The notes beneath the pieces are model-generated. The model saw only the letters and a program-made list of their open reading frames with translations. It did not search any database and was not told the origin of the DNA. The position numbers were made by a program, and so were the translations under genes. This document shows positions 1 through 14,193 of a stretch of DNA of 41,958 bases, in pieces. Position 1 is the stretch's first letter. Each line of letters begins with the position of its first letter. Source of the stretch: an uncultured archaeon (GTDB taxonomy: Archaea > Aenigmatarchaeota > Aenigmatarchaeia > QMZP01 > JAFGSV01). The stretch spans positions 1 to 41,958 of the forward strand of contig CAZXIU010000002.1 in assembly GCA_964640865.1 (NCBI GenBank), in the 5' to 3' direction.

Positions 1-180
1 CGACCGTACTCCCCAGGCGGCCCACTTAACGCTTTCGCTACGGCACTGGCAACCCACGTGAGATTGCCAATGTCTAGTGGGCATCGTTTACAGCCAGGAC
101 TACGGGGGTATCTAATCCCCTTTGCTCCCCTGGCTTTCGTCCCTCACCGTCGGATCCGTTCTGGTCTGGCGCCTTCGCCA

Positions 181-866
181 TTCACCTGGTATGAGCCATC
201 AGTATGAGTTTCTCCTTTTTCTCAGGATGCAAAATGTTTACATTTTTCTGGAAAAAAGAGAAATTTTTCCTCCCCGTTATCCAAAAACGTAGGGAAGTCA
301 TGTTTCTTTTGTCTGATGGACGTACATATACGCGATCATTTCTAATACCTGAAGTTTCTATTTTTAGGTCATTTAGTAGTGACATTATTTGCTCAAGGAA
401 CACTTCAAGTTCATTGGATAAAGAACTGTCTTTTGACAATTTGAAACATATTTGTTTACAATCGTCAGCTCTGAATCCACCGTCGTCATCAAATAGTGCT
501 CCGAGGAAGGCACTTTTAATTTTATCATTACCTTCCATAATCCAATTTGGGACTTCCGTTTTCTGAAGCACATTTGAACCAACTGGTGCACCCTGATTTT
601 CAAGGTATTTACCAACGTTGTTTGAAAACTGGTATCTTGGAGTTCCACCAATTGATGTGCCGACACTGAATTTAACATCACCAAGTAGAGTGTATATACA
701 TTTTCTTACATTTTCTTGTAAGAGACGATTTGAGTTGGTATATATGAAGTAACGTTTTGTGTATAGACCCATCACCTAGTGCGTGTCCCAATAATCGAGC
801 AATAATGACTTTATTCGCCATATATTGTACGTAGTAAGCCTAATAAAAATGAATGGCTCATACCAA
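181..866 (-). mobile_element. Archaeal BHB-type rRNA intron (686 nt) carrying a LAGLIDADG homing endonuclease gene
   Basis: In rRNA sense the 5' side reads CACC-UGU-UGGUAUGAGCCAU and the 3' side reads AUGGCUCAUACCA-GGUG-AAU-GGCG. This gives a 13-bp inner helix, a 4-bp central helix (CACC:GGUG) and two 3-nt bulges. Cutting after the 2nd bulge nucleotide joins ...GGACCACCUG to UGGCGAAGGCG, the conserved archaeal 16S sequence. Confidence 0.85.
182..775 (-). CDS. LAGLIDADG homing endonuclease, C-terminal 197 codons of a frame-broken gene (the first motif lies upstream in another frame, ATG at 821)
   Basis: The second LAGLIDADG motif KSAFLGALFDDDGGF is in this ORF. The first motif, MANKVIIARLLGHALGDGSIHK, is encoded at 821-756 in a frame offset by one. 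The two frames meet at an A4 run (minus strand, plus coordinates 755-758). The gene has the same orientation as the rRNA. Confidence 0.85.
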   Translation of the reverse strand: MMGLYTKRYFIYTNSNRLLQENVRKCIYTLLGDVKFSVGTSIGGTPRYQFSNNVGKYLENQGAPVGSNVLQKTEVPNWIMEGNDKIKSAFLGALFDDDGGFRADDCKQICFKLSKDSSLSNELEVFLEQIMSLLNDLKIETSGIRNDRVYVRPSDKRNMTSLRFWITGRKNFSFFQKNVNILHPEKKEKLILMAHTR

Positions 867-1183
867 CAGGTGGTCCCCAAGGGATTACAGGATTTTACCC
901 CTACCCCTTGAGTACCCCAGACCTCTCCCGGTCCCAAGTCCAACAGTTTCCCTAGCAAGCCCCACAGTTAGCTGCGGGATTTCACTAAAGACTTTCTGGA
1001 CCGGCTACGAACGCTTTAAGCCCAATAAACGTGGTTATCACTCGTGGCGCGGGTATTACCGCGGCGGCTGGCACCCGTCTTACCCACCACTTATTCTTGG
1101 AGCTGTTTACACTCCACAAAAGCATCCCCTATGTAAGAGAATGCACTCCAGATCCCTTCCTCACACTTGCGTGCATTGGGAAA

Positions 1184-1216
<33 letters not shown>

Positions 1217-1533
1217 TTCTTGTCTCAGAATCCATCTCCGAGCTTCCTCTCTCAAGGCTCGTACGGATTATCGGCTTGCCAGGACGTTACCCTAACAACA
1301 ACCTAATCCGGTGCAGTCCAATCCTCAAGCGCAAAAGCTTTAGAAAAGAAAACATTCCAGTACTTCTTATCTATCAGGTATTAGCCTCAGTTTCCCGAGA
1401 TTATCCCTGACTTGAGGGCATATTAACTACATGTTACTGAGCTTTCTGCCCTAATGTCCAAAGATGAACATCAAGACTTGCATGGCTTAGTCGAATCCGG
1501 ATAGCAATAACCTCCGGCAGGATCAACCGGAAT

Positions 1534-2395: not shown

Positions 2396-2983
2396 CTATT
2401 TCTTTCTGTCTCGCATATTCACATACTCTATGAATATATCAGGGACGGGGTATTTCCTGAACCTTTTCAGAAGATTCATTCCATACATTAACCGCGAAAT
2501 TACCTCAGCTGTAAGCTCGGCATCGTCCAGTGCATTGTGCGCATTAGTCCTCGGAGGTATGCCTGACATATACAATGCTGCGTCGAGGCTCCAGGGAAGT
2601 CCTGCGAGAAGAGGGGAAATTTCATGAAGCTCAATGCTTTTTGCCTTGAATGGATACTTCATGCCAATTCTCCTGAAGTTCTCCTGAAGGAATCCTGTAT
2701 CGAACCAGATATTGTCTCCGGCAATGGTCTTGTCCTTTATGGGCTTCATCCATTTCATAAAATACATAAGCAATTCCTTTGACGTTGGTTTTTCAGGGTC
2801 GTTTATCTCCTCACGGCTGAACCCGTTTATTTTCAGGGCTATGTTGCTGACAGAAGCGCCCTCGTCCGCCCTGCATTCGCCGTAGAATGTGTTCTTCTGA
2901 TTACTGAAATCGAGCGCGCCTATGCTGAGAAGGCTGTTTTTTTCAGGCTCCATTCCAGTTGTCTCGATGTCGACTACTATCAT
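2396..2983 (-). CDS. DEDDh-family 3'-5' exonuclease (DnaQ/RNase T-like)
   Basis: Exo I motif VVDIETTG, Exo II motif NIWFDTGFL and Exo III motif HNALDDAELTAEV. The stop codon abuts the 3' end of tRNA-His. Confidence 0.8.
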   Translation of the reverse strand: MIVVDIETTGMEPEKNSLLSIGALDFSNQKNTFYGECRADEGASVSNIALKINGFSREEINDPEKPTSKELLMYFMKWMKPIKDKTIAGDNIWFDTGFLQENFRRIGMKYPFKAKSIELHEISPLLAGLPWSLDAALYMSGIPPRTNAHNALDDAELTAEVISRLMYGMNLLKRFRKYPVPDIFIEYVNMRDRKK

Positions 2984-2991
2984 ATTTTTAC

Positions 2992-3037
2992 TTTTCCGCG
3001 AGCGCTTCTCGATGTCATCGTTTTTCCGCGAGCGCTT
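2992..3037. repeat. Two copies of the motif TTTTCCGCGAGCGCTT (2992-3007, 3022-3037) in the tRNA-Leu 3' flank
   Basis: Exact 16-nt direct repeat 30 nt apart. The same family recurs at 13249-13264 and 13292-13307, inside the tRNA-Ser intron, and at 32238-32255. Confidence 0.8.
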
Positions 3038-3054
3038 TTTCTAAAAGGGCTCTA

Positions 3055-3188
3055 TGCGGGGGGCAGGATTCGAACCTGCGAAAGCACTGAGCTACAGGAT
3101 AACCCATTGGGGCGCCATCATCTTGGAATCAGCACTTAAGAACCCAATCTTAAGTCCTGCCCCTTTGGCCAGACTCGGGTACCCCCGC
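3055..3188 (-). tRNA. tRNA-Leu (UAA) with a 48-nt intron at 37/38 (3101-3148)
   Basis: Acceptor GCGGGGG/CCCCCGC with A73, anticodon stem CAGGA/UCCUG, loop CU-UAA-G...A, a long variable arm, and T arm GCAGG-UUCGAAU-CCUGC. The intron forms a canonical hBHBh' structure (CUUA:UGGG central helix, UUGGG:CCCAA inner helix). Confidence 0.9.
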
Positions 3189-3222: not shown

Positions 3223-4323
3223 TCATTTATCGAGGAATTTGTCAACTTTCTTCTTTGCTGATTCACGTTTTTTCTGATGCTCCGTGAGGAAGGTTTCCAT
3301 TTTACCTATGAGAATTTGTTTGAGTTCGCCTGTAAGCAGAGCACCTGATTTGTAATCTTCCCGGATTTTTTCGATTTTCCTGTCATCTGGTTCGAACTGC
3401 GTGAACAGATACTGGAATGAAACATCTATATCAGGATTCCCGCCGTGTTTCCGGTGCTCTTCAACTGTTTCACGTCCTCCGGAGAATGCATATTTGTTTA
3501 TTTTATTTTTTGCCTCTTTCGGGCTGTCTGTCAATGATATATATGAATAGGGGTCAGAGCTTGACATCTTTCCTCCCTTTAGTCCCTTTATGAAACGATG
3601 ATATGTTGCTCCGGGAAGCGTGAAACCGAGTTCTTTCTGGAAACGCGCTGCAATGTCGCGGGAAAGCCTTATGTGCGGATCCTGATCTATGCCAACGGGC
3701 ACGACCACATTCTTCGTCCCGCCAAATTCTTTTAGCTGGGGATGGAGGATATCGGAAACCTGAAGCATCACAGACATAATCTTGCCGGGCGAAAGTTCGC
3801 CGTATATTGCATGAAGCTCGTTCATCGTCACTTTCTTTGCAGCCATGCTTGCCAGTTTGTAGTAAGGACTGGCTTTGTCTTTAGAGCGGTTGCTCTGGAA
3901 GTAGAAATCACAATTCTTTGGTTCAAGACCTAGTGCAATATAATTGAGAAGATATTCTTCTATTGCTGTTTCTCTTAGCTTCTCCATGTCCGCAAGCCTC
4001 ATGTTGTAGGCCTCCACATCTGCTACGCAAAGGAACACTTTTGCGCCGAGTTCTTTCTGATGGTATATAATCTGGTCTGCCAGTATCTTGTGACCGAGAT
4101 GGAACTTACCGCTGGGCATGAGTCCTGTCATCATTGCATAATTTTTTGCAGCAAGAACCCTGTCAAAATCCCTGTGACCAAAGATCACACCCCTTCTCAT
4201 GAGCAGGTGGGGATTCTTTATTTTCTTCAGTACACTTGTAAAAGGTGAGATGCCGAAATCCTTGGCTGTTTTTGCATAGTCCTTTACATCATCCGAGCCC
4301 CATGGATTGATTTCTTTTTTCAT
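3223..4323 (-). CDS. trpS: Tryptophanyl-tRNA synthetase (archaeal/eukaryotic type)
   Basis: HIGH-type motif GKFHLGH, KMSKS-type motif KMSSS, and class Ic architecture. The ATG at 4323-4321 overlaps the tyrS TGA by 1 nt. Confidence 0.9.
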   Translation of the reverse strand: MKKEINPWGSDDVKDYAKTAKDFGISPFTSVLKKIKNPHLLMRRGVIFGHRDFDRVLAAKNYAMMTGLMPSGKFHLGHKILADQIIYHQKELGAKVFLCVADVEAYNMRLADMEKLRETAIEEYLLNYIALGLEPKNCDFYFQSNRSKDKASPYYKLASMAAKKVTMNELHAIYGELSPGKIMSVMLQVSDILHPQLKEFGGTKNVVVPVGIDQDPHIRLSRDIAARFQKELGFTLPGATYHRFIKGLKGGKMSSSDPYSYISLTDSPKEAKNKINKYAFSGGRETVEEHRKHGGNPDIDVSFQYLFTQFEPDDRKIEKIREDYKSGALLTGELKQILIGKMETFLTEHQKKRESAKKKVDKFLDK

Positions 4324-5399
4324 CAACTTGTCACCTCAAAATTCTTCACTTTTTCGAGAAGCTTCTTTGCTTTTGCATTCTTTTCAAAATGCTTTCGGAC
4401 AGGTTCCACAAGCTGGTTTATGTGGTCTGAGACAGCATTCTTGAGGTCCATCGGATGGAGCTTGCCGCTTTTGTAAATGCCCACAAGATCGCTGTACGAT
4501 TCTATGCTCAGGTTTCCGCCAAACTTTTCAGGTCGTTTCACTTCCAGTGTTTTGAATTTCTCGAATATGATGTGTTTGCAGTATTCCATTACTGGATTTT
4601 CTTCCACTATTTTTTCAGGGCAGTAGGCTTTTGATATTTTTCTGTTTATTTCTTTTTCGCTATCATCCATGAATATTGCTGTGTCCGGCTTGCTTTTTGA
4701 CATCTTCATCTCTATTGCTCTTTCTGTTGCATCCTTGGATATTGTTGCATGTTTTCCGAGCCCCATGAGCATGTGATGGCTGACAACAACAGGCTTCCAG
4801 AAACCGAGTTTCGGACCTATTTCCCTTGCCAGCATGTTGACCTTCCGCTGGTCCATCCCCAGTTGCGTGATGTCGCATTTCAGCTCGAATATGTCAGCAG
4901 CCTGCATGCAAGGATAGAGTATCTGCGACGCCGAAAGGGTTTCACTTTCCTTTCGGCCCATTATCTGGGCGCATCTCAGCACCCTTTTTACTGTACTGTT
5001 CCTCGCTACTTCCATTACAGTTTTCCAGTACGTTTCATTCCCGAGAAGGTCGCTTGAGCGCACGAATTCTATTTTTTCTATGTCCATGCCTGCGGATTTC
5101 CAGACCTCGAGCATGTAATCGCCTGCGATGTGAATCTTATCGAGGTCCCCCCCAAGCTTGTTGTTCGCCCATCCGTGCCAGTCAGCAACGAGCATCTTGA
5201 ACTTCACGCCTGCCTTTATCATCTTGTTTACATTAATTGCCCTGAGGATGCCCTGCGCTATGTGTATCCGTCCGGAGGGCTCGAAACCGTCATAAGCAAC
5301 AGGCCTGGTTTTTGACTGAAGAAGTTCCCTGAGGTCATCCTCGGTTATGATTTCCTCACCGACCGACCTTATCATATCCATCCTGCTTTCGATGTCCAT
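4323..5399 (-). CDS. tyrS: Tyrosyl-tRNA synthetase (archaeal type)
   Basis: Contains FEPSGRIHIAQG, YPCMQAADI, KMSKS and the C-terminal KRPEKFGGNL...LHPMDLKNAV block typical of archaeal TyrRS. Confidence 0.92.
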   Translation of the reverse strand: MDIESRMDMIRSVGEEIITEDDLRELLQSKTRPVAYDGFEPSGRIHIAQGILRAINVNKMIKAGVKFKMLVADWHGWANNKLGGDLDKIHIAGDYMLEVWKSAGMDIEKIEFVRSSDLLGNETYWKTVMEVARNSTVKRVLRCAQIMGRKESETLSASQILYPCMQAADIFELKCDITQLGMDQRKVNMLAREIGPKLGFWKPVVVSHHMLMGLGKHATISKDATERAIEMKMSKSKPDTAIFMDDSEKEINRKISKAYCPEKIVEENPVMEYCKHIIFEKFKTLEVKRPEKFGGNLSIESYSDLVGIYKSGKLHPMDLKNAVSDHINQLVEPVRKHFEKNAKAKKLLEKVKNFEVTS

Positions 5400-5526: not shown

Positions 5527-6432
5527 ATGAAAAATATTAATGATTACGGAATAGAAGCCGGCATGAAGGCATCTGAACTTGTAGACCAGATGGCATCAGC
5601 AGGCTTCCAGGCATCGGAGATAGGCGATGCCGTGAGGCTGATAAAGCAGATGAAAAAAGACAAGGCGACTGTATTTCTGAGTTTCACAGCCAACATGGTC
5701 GCCTCCGGTCTCCGGGGGATTATAACAAAGCTTGTGAAGGAGCGCTATGTTGATGTCATAATAACCACAGGCGGTTCAATAGACCATGACATAATAAGGT
5801 CAGGAAAAACATACCTGAGTGGCGATTTCAATCTCAATGACGAGGACCTTCACAGGAGGGACATAAACCGCCTCGGCAATATACTCATACCGAGCGACCG
5901 TTACATTTTTCTGGAGAAGTTCATACAGCCGCTTTTCTCTGAGCTGAAGTCGCGCAAGCGTTCATGGACGCCGAGCGAGTTCATACACGAGGCCGGCAAG
6001 AGGATTAAGGACGAAGGCTCATTCCTCCACTGGGCATCAAAGAACAACATTCCGGTTTTCTGTCCAGGCATAACAGACTCAGCCATAGGTTTGCAGCTTT
6101 ACTTCTTCAAGCAGGACAACAAGGACTTCGAGATAGACGTGAGCGGCGACATGAAGCTTGCGGACATAGTCATAAATTCCGAGAAGACCGGCGGCATAAT
6201 ACTAGGCGGCGGGATAGCCAAGCATCATACAATCGGCGTCAACATACTGAAGGAAGGACTCGATTACGCAGTATATGTCACTACGTCTTCAGCATGGGAC
6301 GGAAGCCTTTCCGGAGCAACTCCCAATGAGGCGAAATCATGGAGCAAGGTGAAGGAAAAGGGAGGCACAGTGACTGTATACGGCGATGCTTCTGTCATTG
6401 TTCCTCTTATATTCGCTAAGGTGTTCGGATGA
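5527..6432 (+). CDS. dys: Deoxyhypusine synthase
   Basis: Contains ITTGGSIDHDII and LGGGIAKHH...DYAVYVTTSSAWDGSLSGATPNEAKSWSKV, which matches the conserved DHS C-terminal block. A Shine-Dalgarno-like (SD-like) AAGGAG lies upstream. Confidence 0.9.
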   Translation: MKNINDYGIEAGMKASELVDQMASAGFQASEIGDAVRLIKQMKKDKATVFLSFTANMVASGLRGIITKLVKERYVDVIITTGGSIDHDIIRSGKTYLSGDFNLNDEDLHRRDINRLGNILIPSDRYIFLEKFIQPLFSELKSRKRSWTPSEFIHEAGKRIKDEGSFLHWASKNNIPVFCPGITDSAIGLQLYFFKQDNKDFEIDVSGDMKLADIVINSEKTGGIILGGGIAKHHTIGVNILKEGLDYAVYVTTSSAWDGSLSGATPNEAKSWSKVKEKGGTVTVYGDASVIVPLIFAKVFG

Positions 6433-8330: not shown

Positions 8331-9580
8331 TGTTTATGGAGTTAAAGTTTCTCGGTGGATGCCAGGAAGTCGGAAAATCATCGATTTTTGTGAACACAGG
8401 AAAAGAAAAATTCGTAATGGACCACGGCATAGAGGTGCAGGAAGGGCACAGCCCGATTCAGCCACCCATGGATCTCAGCGGTGTTTTCATAACGCATGCG
8501 CATCTTGACCATTCAGGGTTTGTTCCAGGGCTTTACAGCAGAGGATACAGGGGAAGGACGTTCGCCACGCCTGCGACCTTTGACATCTCACATATGCTTC
8601 TTGAGGACTCACTAAAGGTTCAGAAAAAGAGAGGAATGACACAGGGCTTCACAAGCCAGGACATACGGACCATGGGGAGAAACGAAAAAATAATGGCTTT
8701 CAATGACCCCCAGGAAATTGGTTCCAGCACAGTGGAACTGCTGTCAGCAGGTCATATTCCCGGTGCGTCAATGGTGAAGATTGAAAGCCGCGCAGGAAGC
8801 ATTCTGTACACAGGTGATGTGAAATTCATATCAACTGACTTCATGTTTGGCGCAGATTCGGATGTTGGACATGTACAGACACTCATTTCAGAATCCACAT
8901 ATTCATACAAGAATCATCCGGACAGGGATGAACTGAAGAAGAAGCTGCTTGAGATTATAGAGGACACATGCCACAATGGCGGAATAACGATTCTTCCTGC
9001 ATTCGCTGTCGGAAGGACGCAGGAGATACTCATGATGCTGAAGGACATACAGTTCCCGATATATGTCGACGGCATGGGCATACGCGCAACCCACAGGATG
9101 CTCTCGCATCCAAAATCATTCCGCAATCCCGGCATGCTTCGGGAAGCCATAGAAAGGGCCCACTGCATAAGGAAGCAGCCTGAGAGAAAGGAGGCTGTCA
9201 GCGGTCCTGCTGTCATAATAACAACAGCAGGTATGCTCCAGGGAGGCCCTGTCAGTTTCTACATAAGCCAGCTCGCTAAAAGAAAGGACTGCTCAATGGT
9301 GCTGACAGGATATCAGGTCGAAGGAACAGCAGGACGTACACTCATGGATACAGGCATATATGATAACGGGGAGATGACAGCAAATCCGGAATTTCCGATA
9401 CATTTCCTGGACTTCAGCGCTCACACAGACAGGGATCATCTGATTGAATTCTATAAGAAAGTTAACCCGGAAAAGCTCGTGCTTGTCCATGGAGACAGGA
9501 CACCTGAATTCGCTGAAGAGCTCAGGGGAATGGGATTCGACGCAATTGCCCCCAAGAACGGCGACTCCCTCAAAACGTGA
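8327..9580 (+). CDS. Metallo-beta-lactamase / beta-CASP ribonuclease (aCPSF2-like, no KH domains)
   Basis: MBL motif THAHLDHSG, N-terminal LGGCQEVGKSS, about 415 aa, and a C-terminal HGD motif. Confidence 0.75.
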   Translation: MMFMELKFLGGCQEVGKSSIFVNTGKEKFVMDHGIEVQEGHSPIQPPMDLSGVFITHAHLDHSGFVPGLYSRGYRGRTFATPATFDISHMLLEDSLKVQKKRGMTQGFTSQDIRTMGRNEKIMAFNDPQEIGSSTVELLSAGHIPGASMVKIESRAGSILYTGDVKFISTDFMFGADSDVGHVQTLISESTYSYKNHPDRDELKKKLLEIIEDTCHNGGITILPAFAVGRTQEILMMLKDIQFPIYVDGMGIRATHRMLSHPKSFRNPGMLREAIERAHCIRKQPERKEAVSGPAVIITTAGMLQGGPVSFYISQLAKRKDCSMVLTGYQVEGTAGRTLMDTGIYDNGEMTANPEFPIHFLDFSAHTDRDHLIEFYKKVNPEKLVLVHGDRTPEFAEELRGMGFDAIAPKNGDSLKT

Positions 9581-12062: not shown

Positions 12063-12174
12063 TGGACTGGGTGGGAATTTCAGACTGGAAGCAGATTGCA
12101 TCTGCTTCATGCGCCTTTTGAACCCACGGCCTCCCGATTGCCAACCGAGCGATCTACCACTGATCTACCAGCCC
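12063..12174 (-). tRNA. tRNA-Ala (GGC) with a 40-nt intron in the T-loop at 59/60 (12077-12116)
   Basis: Acceptor GGGCUGG/CCAGUCC with G3:U70 and A73. The anticodon loop UU-GGC-AA is uninterrupted. The T stem is GUGGG...CCCAC. BHB: UUCA:UGAA central helix, bulges AAA and AUU, and inner helix GGC:GUC plus a 9-bp hairpin. Confidence 0.85.
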
Positions 12175-13092: not shown

Positions 13093-13207
13093 TGGGCCGA
13101 GCAGGATTTGAACCTGCGATATCCGCCTTACTTACACCTGCCGTCGGCATGCTGCTCAACGAAAGGATGCTGTAAGGGCGGCGTCATAACCACTAGACCA
13201 CCGGCCC
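13093..13207 (-). tRNA. tRNA-Val (UAC) with a 42-nt intron at 37/38 (13129-13170)
   Basis: Acceptor GGGCCGG/UCGGCCC with A73, anticodon stem CCGCC/GGCGG, and loop CU-UAC-A...A. BHB: CUUA:UAAG central helix with bulges CAG and UAA. Confidence 0.88.
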
Positions 13208-13248
13208 GCGTAAAATTTCTTTGTTCCAGAAAATATAAAAGTATACGA

Positions 13249-13307
13249 TTTTCCGGGAGCGCTTTTGTATGTCTCAGACAGAAAAGGGTTCTTTTCCGGG
13301 AGCGCTT
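13249..13307. repeat. Two copies of TTTTCCGGGAGCGCTT (13249-13264, 13292-13307) in the tRNA-Gly/tRNA-Val spacer
   Basis: Exact 16-nt direct repeat. One substitution relative to the copies at 2992-3037. Confidence 0.8.
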
Positions 13308-13324
13308 TTTCCAAGAGAATTCTA

Positions 13325-13443
13325 TGCGACCGCCGGGATTTGAACCCGGGTCGCTGGCTTTTTTCAAGCTTTTCAACTTTTGCCTGAGCTTTTCCGAAAA
13401 GCTTATGGGAAGCCAGAGTCCTGCCAGACTAGACTACGGTCGC
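13325..13443 (-). tRNA. tRNA-Gly (CCC) with a 46-nt intron at 37/38 (13360-13405)
   Basis: Acceptor GCGACCG/CGGUCGC with A73, anticodon stem CUGGC/GCCAG, loop UU-CCC-A...A, and T arm CCGGG-UUCAAAU-CCCGG. The inner helix AAGCUUUUC:GAAAAGCUU is perfect. The central helix has one mismatch. Confidence 0.85.
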
Positions 13444-13454
13444 AGGCCAGAAAG

Positions 13455-13677
13455 CGCTGAGAGAGGGAATTTCAGAATCCTTTTGCGATTTTCCCGTAAA
13501 CGCTTCTCGTTCGTGCGCCAGCGTACTTTCCGCTTTTGCTTCTCGTTCGTGCGCCAGCGTACTTTCCGCGAACGCTTTTGTGCGTTTACTGCGCAAAAGG
13601 GTTCATTTGAACCCTCGCGAGGCGAACCTCACACGGTTAGCAACCGTGCGCCTTTAACCTAACTCGGCCATCTCAGC
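13455..13677 (-). tRNA. tRNA-Ser (GCU) with a 137-nt intron in the T-loop at 59/60 (13469-13605)
   Basis: Acceptor GCUGAGA/UCUCAGC with G73, intact anticodon arm CACGG-UUGCUAA-CCGUG, and a long variable arm (GAGG-UUCG-CCUC). The T stem GAGGG...CCCUC is split by the insertion. BHB: UUCA:UGAA central helix, bulges AAU and AUU, inner helix GAACCC:GGAUUC. Confidence 0.8.
13502..13573. repeat. Tandem direct repeat, 2 x 36 nt (32 nt identical), inside the tRNA-Ser intron
   Basis: GCTTCTCGTTCGTGCGCCAGCGTACTTTCCGC occurs at 13502-13533 and 13538-13569. Confidence 0.9.
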
Positions 13678-13802
13678 AATTCTTTTACTATTCTGGTTTT
13701 ATCCTTTAAAACCTTAAACCTCCGTTCGATTTTTAAATCCGGTTAATAAGTTTTAAAAACATCTAATCGCAATAAGAATTGAACATACCCCAGGAGGTAA
13801 CT

Positions 13803-14108
13803 ATGGCAATACAGGTTTCGAGTATATCAGATACATATGCAAAGGATGTTTTCACAGACAGAGGGTTTTTCTGCGGAAAAGTTGAGGACGTTGAGTGTGA
13901 CCTTAAGAGGTTCAAGATAAGGTCGCTTGTAATAAGGGCTATCAAGGGTTCATACCTTAGCAGGATGCTCGGCGACAAGAAGGGTGTAGTCATCCCGTTC
14001 CCAATGGTTCACGCAGTCGGCGACATAATACTGATAAAGCACATCGCACCACCCACAGCAGCAGAAGACGCAACACCACTCCCTGAAGCCCCAGAAATGG
14101 GGGACTGA
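13803..14108 (+). CDS. PRC-barrel domain protein
   Basis: Small archaeal PRC-barrel pattern (G..fG.V.D...D.....I..LvI......VIPF..V..VGD.ILI). AGGAGGT lies 6 nt upstream of the ATG at 13803. Confidence 0.65.
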   Translation: MAIQVSSISDTYAKDVFTDRGFFCGKVEDVECDLKRFKIRSLVIRAIKGSYLSRMLGDKKGVVIPFPMVHAVGDIILIKHIAPPTAAEDATPLPEAPEMGD

Positions 14109-14193
14109 ATTTTTATTAGTCCTGCGCTTGCGGGACTGCAAATCTTATTTGTTAATAATTTAATCAGTGAAAGACAAATCTCTATCATTGTGA

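Follow-up and report, generated by a model that had tools for sequence, protein, structure and literature searches.

The window analysed here, a stretch of 41,958 nt from an uncultured archaeon (contig CAZXIU010000002.1), carries on its minus strand at 13455-13677 a tRNA-Ser(GCU) gene whose T-loop is interrupted between positions 59 and 60. Exon 1 (13606..13677, (-), 72 nt) comprises the acceptor 5′ strand, the D arm, the anticodon arm with GCU, the long variable arm, the T-stem strand GAGGG and UUCAAA, which reaches position 59. Exon 2 (13455..13468, (-), 14 nt) supplies U60, CCCUC, UCUCAGC and the discriminator G73, and a 137-nt intron lies between the two exons (13469..13605, (-)). From 13677 to 13455 the minus strand thus reads GCUGAGA UG GCCG..GGC ... 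CACGG UUGCUAA CCGUG, the variable arm and GAGGG UUCAAA, then the 137 nt, then U CCCUC UCUCAGC G. When 13677-13606 and 13468-13455 are joined, ARAGORN calls the resulting 86-mer as tRNA-Ser(gct) with all stems intact, including a 7-bp acceptor stem, the long variable arm, the T stem GAGGG/CCCUC and the T-loop UUCAAAU. The predicted A59-U60 joint is GGGUUCAAA followed directly by UCCCUC. On the unspliced 223 nt ARAGORN makes no tRNA call, the gene is also missed when ARAGORN and Rfam are run on the whole window, and the Rfam tRNA model gives the 5′ part only 27 bits against a gathering score of 29 bits. An antisense open reading frame (ORF) at 13108-13662 (184 aa) matches no Pfam family and spans three tRNA genes, and coding potential at the locus was rejected on these grounds. 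Analysis of the sequence strongly supports a predicted tRNA-Ser(GCU) gene split at 59/60 by a structured, repeat-containing intron without a C/D guide.

The host is an Aenigmatarchaeota-like archaeon of the DPANN group (Diapherotrites, Parvarchaeota, Aenigmarchaeota, Nanoarchaeota, Nanohaloarchaeota). The window starts with an interrupted archaeal 16S rRNA gene, and its Sua5/YrdC protein is 93% identical to the homolog in a Candidatus Aenigmatarchaeota metagenome-assembled genome from Zodletone spring (JAFGFG010000009.1). Relatives obtained through Sua5 homologs (L001 and L004-L008) provide orthologs of the gene, with tRNA-Ser lying divergently upstream of the PRC-barrel and Sua5 genes in the window, L001 and L004-L007, and upstream of a PRC-barrel gene in L008. 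The exons of tRNA-Ser(GCU) are identical in L001 (Sua5 93%), which has a 131-nt homologous T-loop intron. L004 (Sua5 76%) carries an intronless gene of 86 nt in which both exons are contiguous, differing by 1 nt from the predicted spliced product. Further away, L005 (Sua5 59%) retains a homologous 59/60 intron of 69 nt and has another one close to the D arm, L006 (59%) and L007 (58%) have the D-side intron only, and L008 (58%) has none. The intronless ortholog of L004 fixes the splice junction and identifies the locus as the tRNA-Ser(GCU) gene of this lineage. Together with the ARAGORN call on the spliced 86-mer, it bears out the initial annotation, made from the letters of the sequence, which had placed a tRNA-Ser(GCU) split at 59/60 at these coordinates. 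An A/T-rich, TATA-like box (UUUUAAAGGAUAAAA, 13697..13711, (-)) lies ~20-34 nt upstream of the tRNA start and may act as its promoter; such a box is also present in L001 and L004-L007.

The splice junction is a canonical helix-bulge-helix-bulge-helix (hBHBh′) motif. Its 5′ half (13605..13616, (-)) consists of the T-stem strand GAGGG (13616-13612), UUCA (13611-13608) and a 3-nt bulge AAU (13607-13605), with cleavage expected after the second nucleotide of this bulge. The 3′ half (13463..13487, (-)) consists of CGCAAAAGGAUUC (13487-13475), UGAA (13474-13471), a 3-nt bulge AUU (13470-13468) and CCCUC (13467-13463). The arrangement GAGGG-UUCA-(AAU)-GAACCCUUUUGCG ... CGCAAAAGGAUUC-UGAA-(AUU)-CCCUC combines a 4-bp central helix, which separates two 3-nt bulges, with an outer helix and an intron helix. 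Since removal of the intron restores the cloverleaf and the hBHBh′ geometry is present, the Ser intron belongs with the archaeal bulge-helix-bulge (BHB) tRNA introns.

Structure prediction, which the initial annotation had proposed as a check, agrees with this assignment. The 223-nt precursor is more stable than all of 200 shuffled sequences (200/200, z = -3.5), and a fold forced into cloverleaf plus BHB reaches -83.1 kcal/mol against an unconstrained minimum free energy (MFE) of -85.0, a gap of 1.9, within 2 kcal/mol of the MFE, with an ensemble penalty of 2.7 kcal/mol. The two long-range pairings named earlier are both found, GAATCCTTTTGCG with CGCAAAAGGGTTC (13 nt, 92% complementary) and GTAAACGC with GCGTTTAC (8 nt, 100% complementary).

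Covariation among related introns lends further weight to the junction. An RNAalifold analysis of 12 T-loop introns recovers the T stem, the h′ helix GAACC/GGUUC, a hairpin A with a loop that in most cases is GUAAAC, an unpaired CGUUC and a hairpin B (GCGG...CCGC). Across five helices including the central helix, 96.5% of cells are paired, compared with 87.5% in shuffles (0/500 reach the observed value) and at most 53% in slid registers. Seven pairs show double changes, for example UUCA:UGAA to UUCG:CGAG, and further junction variants such as UUCG:CGAA occur among 28 T-loop introns. The earlier reading of the split gene is thus strongly supported by the hBHBh′ junction and by covariation in 12 related introns.

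A precursor of 223 nt or longer would be transcribed from the gene's own TATA-type promoter, probably as a cotranscript with tRNA-Gly, whose gene lies 11 nt downstream. In this RNA the T stem, UUCA:UGAA and the intron helix GAACCCUUUUGCG:CGCAAAAGGAUUC would flank the bulges AAU and AUU, both of which would be cut by the archaeal splicing endonuclease. An RtcB-type ligase would then join A59 to U60 to produce the 86-nt tRNA, and the 137-nt intron would be released as a linear or circular RNA. Both enzymatic steps are proposed because they are established for BHB introns.

The first ~45 nt of the intron form a conserved module, GAACC-C-UUUU...AAAAG-C-GUUC-GCGGAAA (13563..13604, (-)), in which hairpin A (13604-13570; GAACCCUUUUGCGC, loop AGUAAAC, GCACAAAAGCGUUC) is followed by the tail GCGGAAA (13569-13563). 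The 5′ arm of hairpin A has two possible partners, the nearby 3′ arm or a distal arm at 13487-13475, the latter being the BHB-competent one. The tandem repeat described in the initial annotation is present where it was placed (13502..13569, (-)). It consists of two 32-nt units, GCGGAAAGUACGCUGGCGCACGAACGAGAAGC, at 13569-13538 and 13533-13502, which are 100% identical, separated by AAAA (period 36) and correspond to the hairpin B region of the family. The proposed search for further copies was carried out over the window and found none at ≤3 mismatches, with 0 expected by chance; in a sequence search, the only relative of the unit beyond L001 is a 20-nt stretch in L091. The hairpin A 5′ arm and loop also recur as a partial, inverted copy (13475..13503, (-); GCGUUUAC-GGGAAAAU-CGCAAAAGGAUUC), which appears in the MFE and constrained folds and turns the closing helix of the intron into a long stem.

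Comparison with the orthologs suggests how this architecture arose. The 69-nt intron of L005 shows the family layout with a single GCGGAAAAUACGCU unit, while the window and L001 have the hairpin B region twice. In the 131-nt intron of L001 both repeats are kept, copy 1 with three substitutions and copy 2 with a 6-nt deletion, and the remainder is identical. The duplication is older than the split between the window and L001, because L001 also carries two copies. The extra length derives from two lineage-specific events, the 36-nt tandem duplication of the hairpin B region, which is a recent expansion of this lineage, and the inverted partial copy of hairpin A. As the repeat copies of L001 are already diverging, there is no evidence seen that the duplicated core is selected, and in our reading it is a tolerated, presumably neutral, expansion of the slippage type.

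The intron had been described as about three times the size of the others. This holds within the window, where the Ser intron has 137 nt, the T-loop intron of tRNA-Ala 40 nt and the other introns about 40-60 nt. Among the matches listed, 28 distinct module-bearing 59/60 introns are resolved at both junctions, and the Ser intron is the second longest of them; it is long yet not unique, because these related T-loop introns span 48-183 nt with a median of 77.

Several functional assignments of the intron were considered. Direct reading finds no UGAUGA (C box) in it, no Rfam family matches it, and no small nucleolar or small guide RNA family is found by Rfam at the E-value threshold. A C/D or H/ACA guide RNA was accordingly rejected, as the boxes are missing and Rfam gives no match, in agreement with the earlier view that this is not a C/D guide. 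A group I, group II or homing-endonuclease intron was also rejected, given the length of only 137 nt, the lack of a match to any Rfam intron family and a sole overlapping ORF that runs antisense. Among the functions suggested in the initial annotation, a remnant of a mobile intron and a protein-binding module remain, whereas the C/D guide is excluded.

The structured core is not an isolated feature, since the 5′ third of the intron belongs to a very widespread module family with the pattern GARCC-C-UUU...AAAG-C-GYUC-SCGGAAA, positioned at the splice-site end; in the introns of this family a hairpin B usually follows hairpin A and its tail. GARCCCUUU and the downstream motif form a hairpin with an invariant C·C mismatch. 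A metagenome scan with TTTCCGSGARCGCTTTN{2,25}AAAGGGYTC gave at least 127 matches in at least 120 stretches, and at least 117 distinct copies remain after pooling with the window and related loci and removing duplicates. The loose tail motif has 215 matches compared with 2-7 in shuffles. The module has no Rfam family, and literature searches found no description of it.

The Ser intron fits the family pattern exactly and is 88-93% identical over 42-57 nt to more than 25 metagenome introns. Its module starts one base past the 5′ cleavage site, the 5′ arm pairs with the 3′-end GGYUC to give the h′ helix, and the same junction layout is found in 27 other T-loop introns among the matches listed. 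In many of the listed 59/60 introns the module begins right after GGUUCRAAU. By in-silico splicing and ARAGORN, at least 38 copies are BHB introns, which are distributed over at least 15 tRNA isotypes and located in the D-loop, at 37/38 or at 59/60, and inverted copies stand at intron 3′ ends in L042, L107, L015 and others. The module also occurs in archaeal 16S rRNA genes (L023, L084/L089 and L097), in tRNA trailers, and as 28-32-nt copies between protein genes, with ~30 such spacer copies among the matches listed.

In the window, AAAAGCGYUCSCGGAAA occurs six times, compared with 0.04 expected by chance. Five of the six sites adjoin tRNA genes on the tRNA-sense strand, two after tRNA-Leu, two after tRNA-Gly and one in the Ser intron; the remaining site lies within coding sequence and has 2 mismatches. 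The trailer of tRNA-Gly(CCC) holds a module pair (13250..13322, (-)) with a period of 43 nt; the copy at 13322-13293 is degenerate, whereas that at 13291-13250, GAACCCUUUU...AAAAGCGCUCCCGGAAA, is complete. The pair in the tRNA-Leu(UAA) trailer (2993..3052, (-); period 30 nt) consists of GAGCCCUUUUAGAAAAAGCGCUCGCGGAAA at 3052-3023, starting 2 nt past tRNA-Leu, and a tail copy at 3009-2993, and takes up all of the spacer before the gene for an RNase T-like exonuclease (2396-2983), as far as its start codon. Arrays of the hairpin B type are found in L011, L091 and L121 and in both of these window trailers.

Taken together, the locus is likely a functional tRNA-Ser(GCU) gene with a BHB intron of the module family, lengthened by a lineage-specific expansion whose core is tolerated. 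Some observations count against parts of this interpretation. The MFE fold pairs the 5′ strand of the T stem, AGGGUUCA, with the 5′ end of the intron, UGAACCCU, and contains no BHB; as this alternative competes with the BHB, correct folding may need the tRNA body or proteins. Neither the splicing endonuclease nor RtcB is encoded within the 42-kb window. The intron flanks are 100% identical to those of L001, which is not proof of selection, because the DNA identity of 97-100% extends over 13389-14188 and includes the tRNA-Gly 5′ end, tRNA-Ser, the promoter and the neighbouring PRC-barrel gene, compared with ~94% elsewhere. An argument for selection from this identity was therefore rejected as confounded; the PRC protein is identical in both genomes, and the tract reflects either recent recombination or unusually strong constraint. 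Finally, tandem copies of a GCGGAAAG..CGCUG module recur independently in L052, L122 and L091, so that multiplied binding sites could be useful and the core may not be neutral.

Tandem repeats are also present in further tRNA introns of this family. A tRNA intron at 2521-2679 (-) of L122 contains 3.8 (~4) copies of a 42-nt unit that includes AAAAGCGUUAACGGAAA, and a D-loop intron at 5690-5760 (+) of L052 has two copies of GCGGAAAGUCYGCUGACG.

The failure of ARAGORN and Rfam to call the unspliced gene might instead indicate a tRNA gene killed by an insertion, or a split gene whose pieces are joined in trans. The placement of the module at gene 3′ ends, with its short T tract, could moreover terminate transcription after exon 1. 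We regard this as highly improbable, because both exons are complete and have identical counterparts in L001, all stems pair perfectly and the BHB takes the canonical form. With just 14 nt, exon 2 follows 137 nt further along the same strand, and no promoter-like sequence precedes it. In addition, a homologous intron persists in L005, at a Sua5 identity of 59%, with compensatory changes, and many sister introns share the same architecture.

The nature of the module itself is a separate matter, for which two readings remain: it could be a propagating hairpin element or an RNA signal recognised by the host. The first concerns origin and is compatible with a functional, BHB-spliced tRNA-Ser gene. 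Here, the module and with it the Ser intron would be the footprint of a short, tailed imperfect palindrome that spreads, or is duplicated, as DNA or as RNA. Within tRNA and rRNA genes it would persist only at sites where its inverted ends and four complementary bases form a BHB that lets the host endonuclease excise it, which would make it an archaeal equivalent of introner introns. We put this forward tentatively, as a possibility against which the balance still leans.

At least 25 fixed bases are common to the at least 120 metagenome stretches, and the hosts range from 27 to 62% GC and, among the matches listed, their module-bearing 16S genes are 65-86% identical to one another and to that of the window. 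The spread of copies over several tRNA positions, 16S rRNA, trailers and spacers is as expected for such an element, as is their occurrence in both orientations with the GARCC end always towards the splice site or gene end. An identical 42-nt module is found in tRNA-Ile and tRNA-Val of L010, and head-to-tail arrays occur in L011, L121, L122 and the window trailers. L001 has a single copy after tRNA-Gly where the window has two, the sole copy-number polymorphism seen, and in tRNA-Ala the introns are present, absent or shifted in position between close relatives. The corresponding tRNA-Gly ortholog of L005, which adjoins tRNA-Ser, is outside this comparison, since an N run at 9158-9257 (CP070804.1) covers most of the gene.

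Partial duplications of the 5′ end of the downstream gene also stand beside some copies. In L082 (~1550-1650) the module lies beside a duplicated 23-24 nt 5′ end of a putative ribosomal protein L24e gene, its translation judged by eye, and in L022 (~1430, (-)) and L034 (~4657, (-)) beside a 15-nt duplicated tRNA 5′ end. All three share the layout of truncated copy, module, spacer and intact gene. These flanking duplications favour an element and may be the trace of an insertion mechanism or of intron loss.

Against a propagating element, no transposase, integrase or reverse transcriptase is seen in the window, no larger module-bounded element was found, and no clear or consistent target-site duplication was detected. 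Autonomous elements bounded by modules were specifically considered and rejected, as none is seen in convergent copy pairs, and a viral origin was dismissed with 0 module matches in viral contigs. The exon-complementary 4-nt strand cannot come with a generic element, and conservation over phylum-level divergence fits functional constraint equally well. It is only a tentative proposal that a previously undescribed and widespread archaeal element, GARCC-C-UUU...AAAG-C-GYUC-SCGGAAA, spreads within and between DPANN-type genomes and makes spliced introns. If true, stable RNA genes would tolerate the element because half of the BHB motif is supplied by its inverted ends. One repeat family would then actively generate protein-spliced tRNA and rRNA introns, and elsewhere act as, or decay into, 3′-end and intercistronic hairpins.

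The second reading holds that the module is an RNA signal read by a conserved host factor, which could mark where the upstream RNA ends, as a processing, stabilising or 3′-end hairpin. On this view duplication of the core would provide additional binding sites, and the excised, possibly circular intron would be a stable protein-binding RNA. This is rather unlikely in our estimation, even though the conservation pattern is suggestive: the unpaired CGUUC, GCGGAAA and, in T-loop introns, the GUAAAC loop are invariant while the stems covary. At the hairpin base the R:Y pair covaries, with A:U in 62, G:C in 34 and G:U in 9 copies among the matches listed. A 12-copy subfamily has A·C at this position, always together with CCGGAAA. 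The asymmetry between G·U and A·C, tried as a test of an RNA versus a DNA hairpin, was uninformative (9 G·U and 12 A·C), with loop positions contaminating the stem counts.

Placement is also consistent with an RNA signal. Trailer copies begin 1-2 nt past the tRNA discriminator, most copies are oriented like the flanking gene, the GCGGAAAG..CGCUG unit is tandemly duplicated in independent loci, and for ~10 spacer copies the start falls at the stop codon of an upstream ORF on the same strand or overlaps it. The stop-codon placement rests on a crude ORF scan rather than on gene calls. Against such a signal, some copies run antisense to the tRNA that hosts them, the module is missing from many introns and trailers of these genomes, and the two repeat copies are decaying in L001. 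No kink-turn (K-turn), C/D, H/ACA or other known protein-binding signature was found, and Rfam gave no match.

More specific roles for the module were examined and rejected. A K-turn formed by GYUC-SCG-GAAA would need GA 5′ of the hairpin, where positions -2/-1 are variable. An internal BHB in the short spacer copies is incompatible with the GCGG after GYUC, which, as worked out for L056, does not pair with the four bases preceding the bulge; the spacer copies are thus not introns. The A/T loop as a TATA box would be too near abutting start codons (~15-23 nt), and long G/C-rich loops exist. A simple oligo-T terminator would have a T tract of only 3-6 nt and leave the conserved 3′ arm and tail unexplained.

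Non-canonical BHB tRNA introns are known from archaea, with multiple and ectopic introns in Thermoproteales and disrupted tRNA genes in DPANN lineages (PMC4033280, PMC5829648), and they are cleaved by splicing endonucleases of broad specificity. The Ser intron resembles them in being defined by an hBHBh′ motif, spliced by proteins and located outside 37/38, in a host lineage rich in disrupted tRNA genes. In this respect it is another ectopic BHB intron in a lineage already known for them, and the locus is chiefly useful for annotation, because standard tRNA finders overlook the gene. Such introns are usually shorter than 100 nt (PMC4033280), in contrast to 137 nt here. They also differ from the Ser intron in that the latter has a perfect tandem repeat and a 5′ module that is also found at loci outside tRNA introns.

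In Thermoproteales, similar introns occur in different tRNA species and at different positions, and a 2010 study, as cited in PMC4033280, terms this intron transposition. According to that account, the similarity points to spread between genes and rapid intron gain (PMC4033280). The module introns are alike in occupying different tRNAs and positions. As far as the cited account describes the Thermoproteales case, they differ in having DPANN-type hosts and a defined hairpin plus tail of ~30-45 nt, and in that the unit also occurs in 16S rRNA introns, tRNA trailers and protein-gene spacers of very divergent hosts. The compact conserved module, its presence outside tRNA introns and the breadth of its hosts would therefore go beyond anything we found described.

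The haloarchaeal tRNA-Trp intron is a long (>100 nt), structured BHB intron that encodes a box C/D guide RNA. It shares with the Ser intron the combination of a long structured BHB intron and an extra RNA module, whereas the Ser intron lacks a C (RUGAUGA) or D box K-turn and has no evident guide function. Bacterial repetitive extragenic palindromic (REP) sequences and bacterial interspersed mosaic elements (BIME), as well as archaeal palindrome-associated transposable elements (PATEs), are short multi-copy imperfect palindromes located after stop codons or between same-strand genes, singly or in head-to-tail clusters. The module is likewise an imperfect palindrome with a conserved mismatch and an adjacent conserved single-stranded motif. 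With at least 117 distinct copies at 120 or more loci, ~30 of them in spacers, it is a multi-copy intergenic palindrome in both orientations, as are REP and miniature inverted-repeat transposable element (MITE) families. In contrast to REPs, however, it is located at BHB splice sites of stable RNA genes, and no transposase of the HUH or REP-associated tyrosine (RAYT) type was seen.

Eukaryotic introner elements are transposon-derived spliceosomal introns. The likeness to them is conceptual, in that a single repeat family would underlie numerous introns that lie at unrelated sites and are rapidly gained and lost. It is an analogy only, since module introns use a protein endonuclease and ligase instead of the spliceosome and no transposition machinery was identified.

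The origin and movement of archaeal protein-spliced introns is an old question, for which intron similarity in Thermoproteales is the sole prior evidence found. A searchable module now links tRNA introns at different positions, 16S introns, trailers and spacers across very divergent archaea. Differences between relatives in intron presence, position and copy number provide a handle on intron gain, through either element spread or reuse of an RNA signal. A model of the module would also help to locate hidden split tRNA genes in DPANN genomes, whose tRNA sets often seem incomplete.

tRNA introns turn over very fast in the host lineage, as the tRNA-Ala(GGC) gene illustrates. In the window (12081-12174, (-)) this gene has a 40-nt T-loop intron at 59/60. 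Its ortholog in L001 (~8115, (-)) lacks a T-loop intron and has a D-loop intron instead, that of L007 is intronless, and that of L008 has a different T-loop intron. The initial annotation had noted identical junctions in the Ser and Ala introns and suggested a shared origin or a shared target site. Sequence comparison of the two introns found no likeness beyond the junction, a likeness imposed by the shared T-loop sequence, which argues for a shared target site. A shared origin was rejected, as no further similarity exists and the closest relative lacks the Ala T-loop intron. Since the Ala, Gly and Val introns of the window are without the module, the module is not required for splicing.

A second hairpin family, AAGCUUUU-loop-AAAAGCUY, is found in canonical 37/38 introns of the window tRNA-Gly (13359-13404, (-)), L001, L052 (3773) and L107 (7353). 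It also stands directly after tRNA 3′ ends (L012 235 and L063 4715) and thus shows an intron/trailer duality like that of the main module. In the tRNA-Leu(UAA) intron of the window (3055-3188, (-)), GCUGAUU and AGAUGAUGG resemble D and C boxes in reversed order; Rfam at the gathering threshold gave nothing but tRNA here.

The window is generally rich in tRNA-related genes, encoding RtcA, a beta-CASP nuclease, Trm1, Sua5, Pus10, a TrmI-like methylase and HisRS. Two adjacent genes for class Ib (Trp/Tyr-type) aminoacyl-tRNA synthetases lie at 3223-4326 and 4323-5399 (-). The 16S gene at 1-1533 (-) is cut by the window edge and contains ~690 nt of extra sequence within model positions 1-843, in which the module motif was not found. 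An ORF in this extra sequence (182-775, (-)) has a weak LAGLIDADG_3 match, which points to an rRNA intron with a homing-endonuclease-like ORF.

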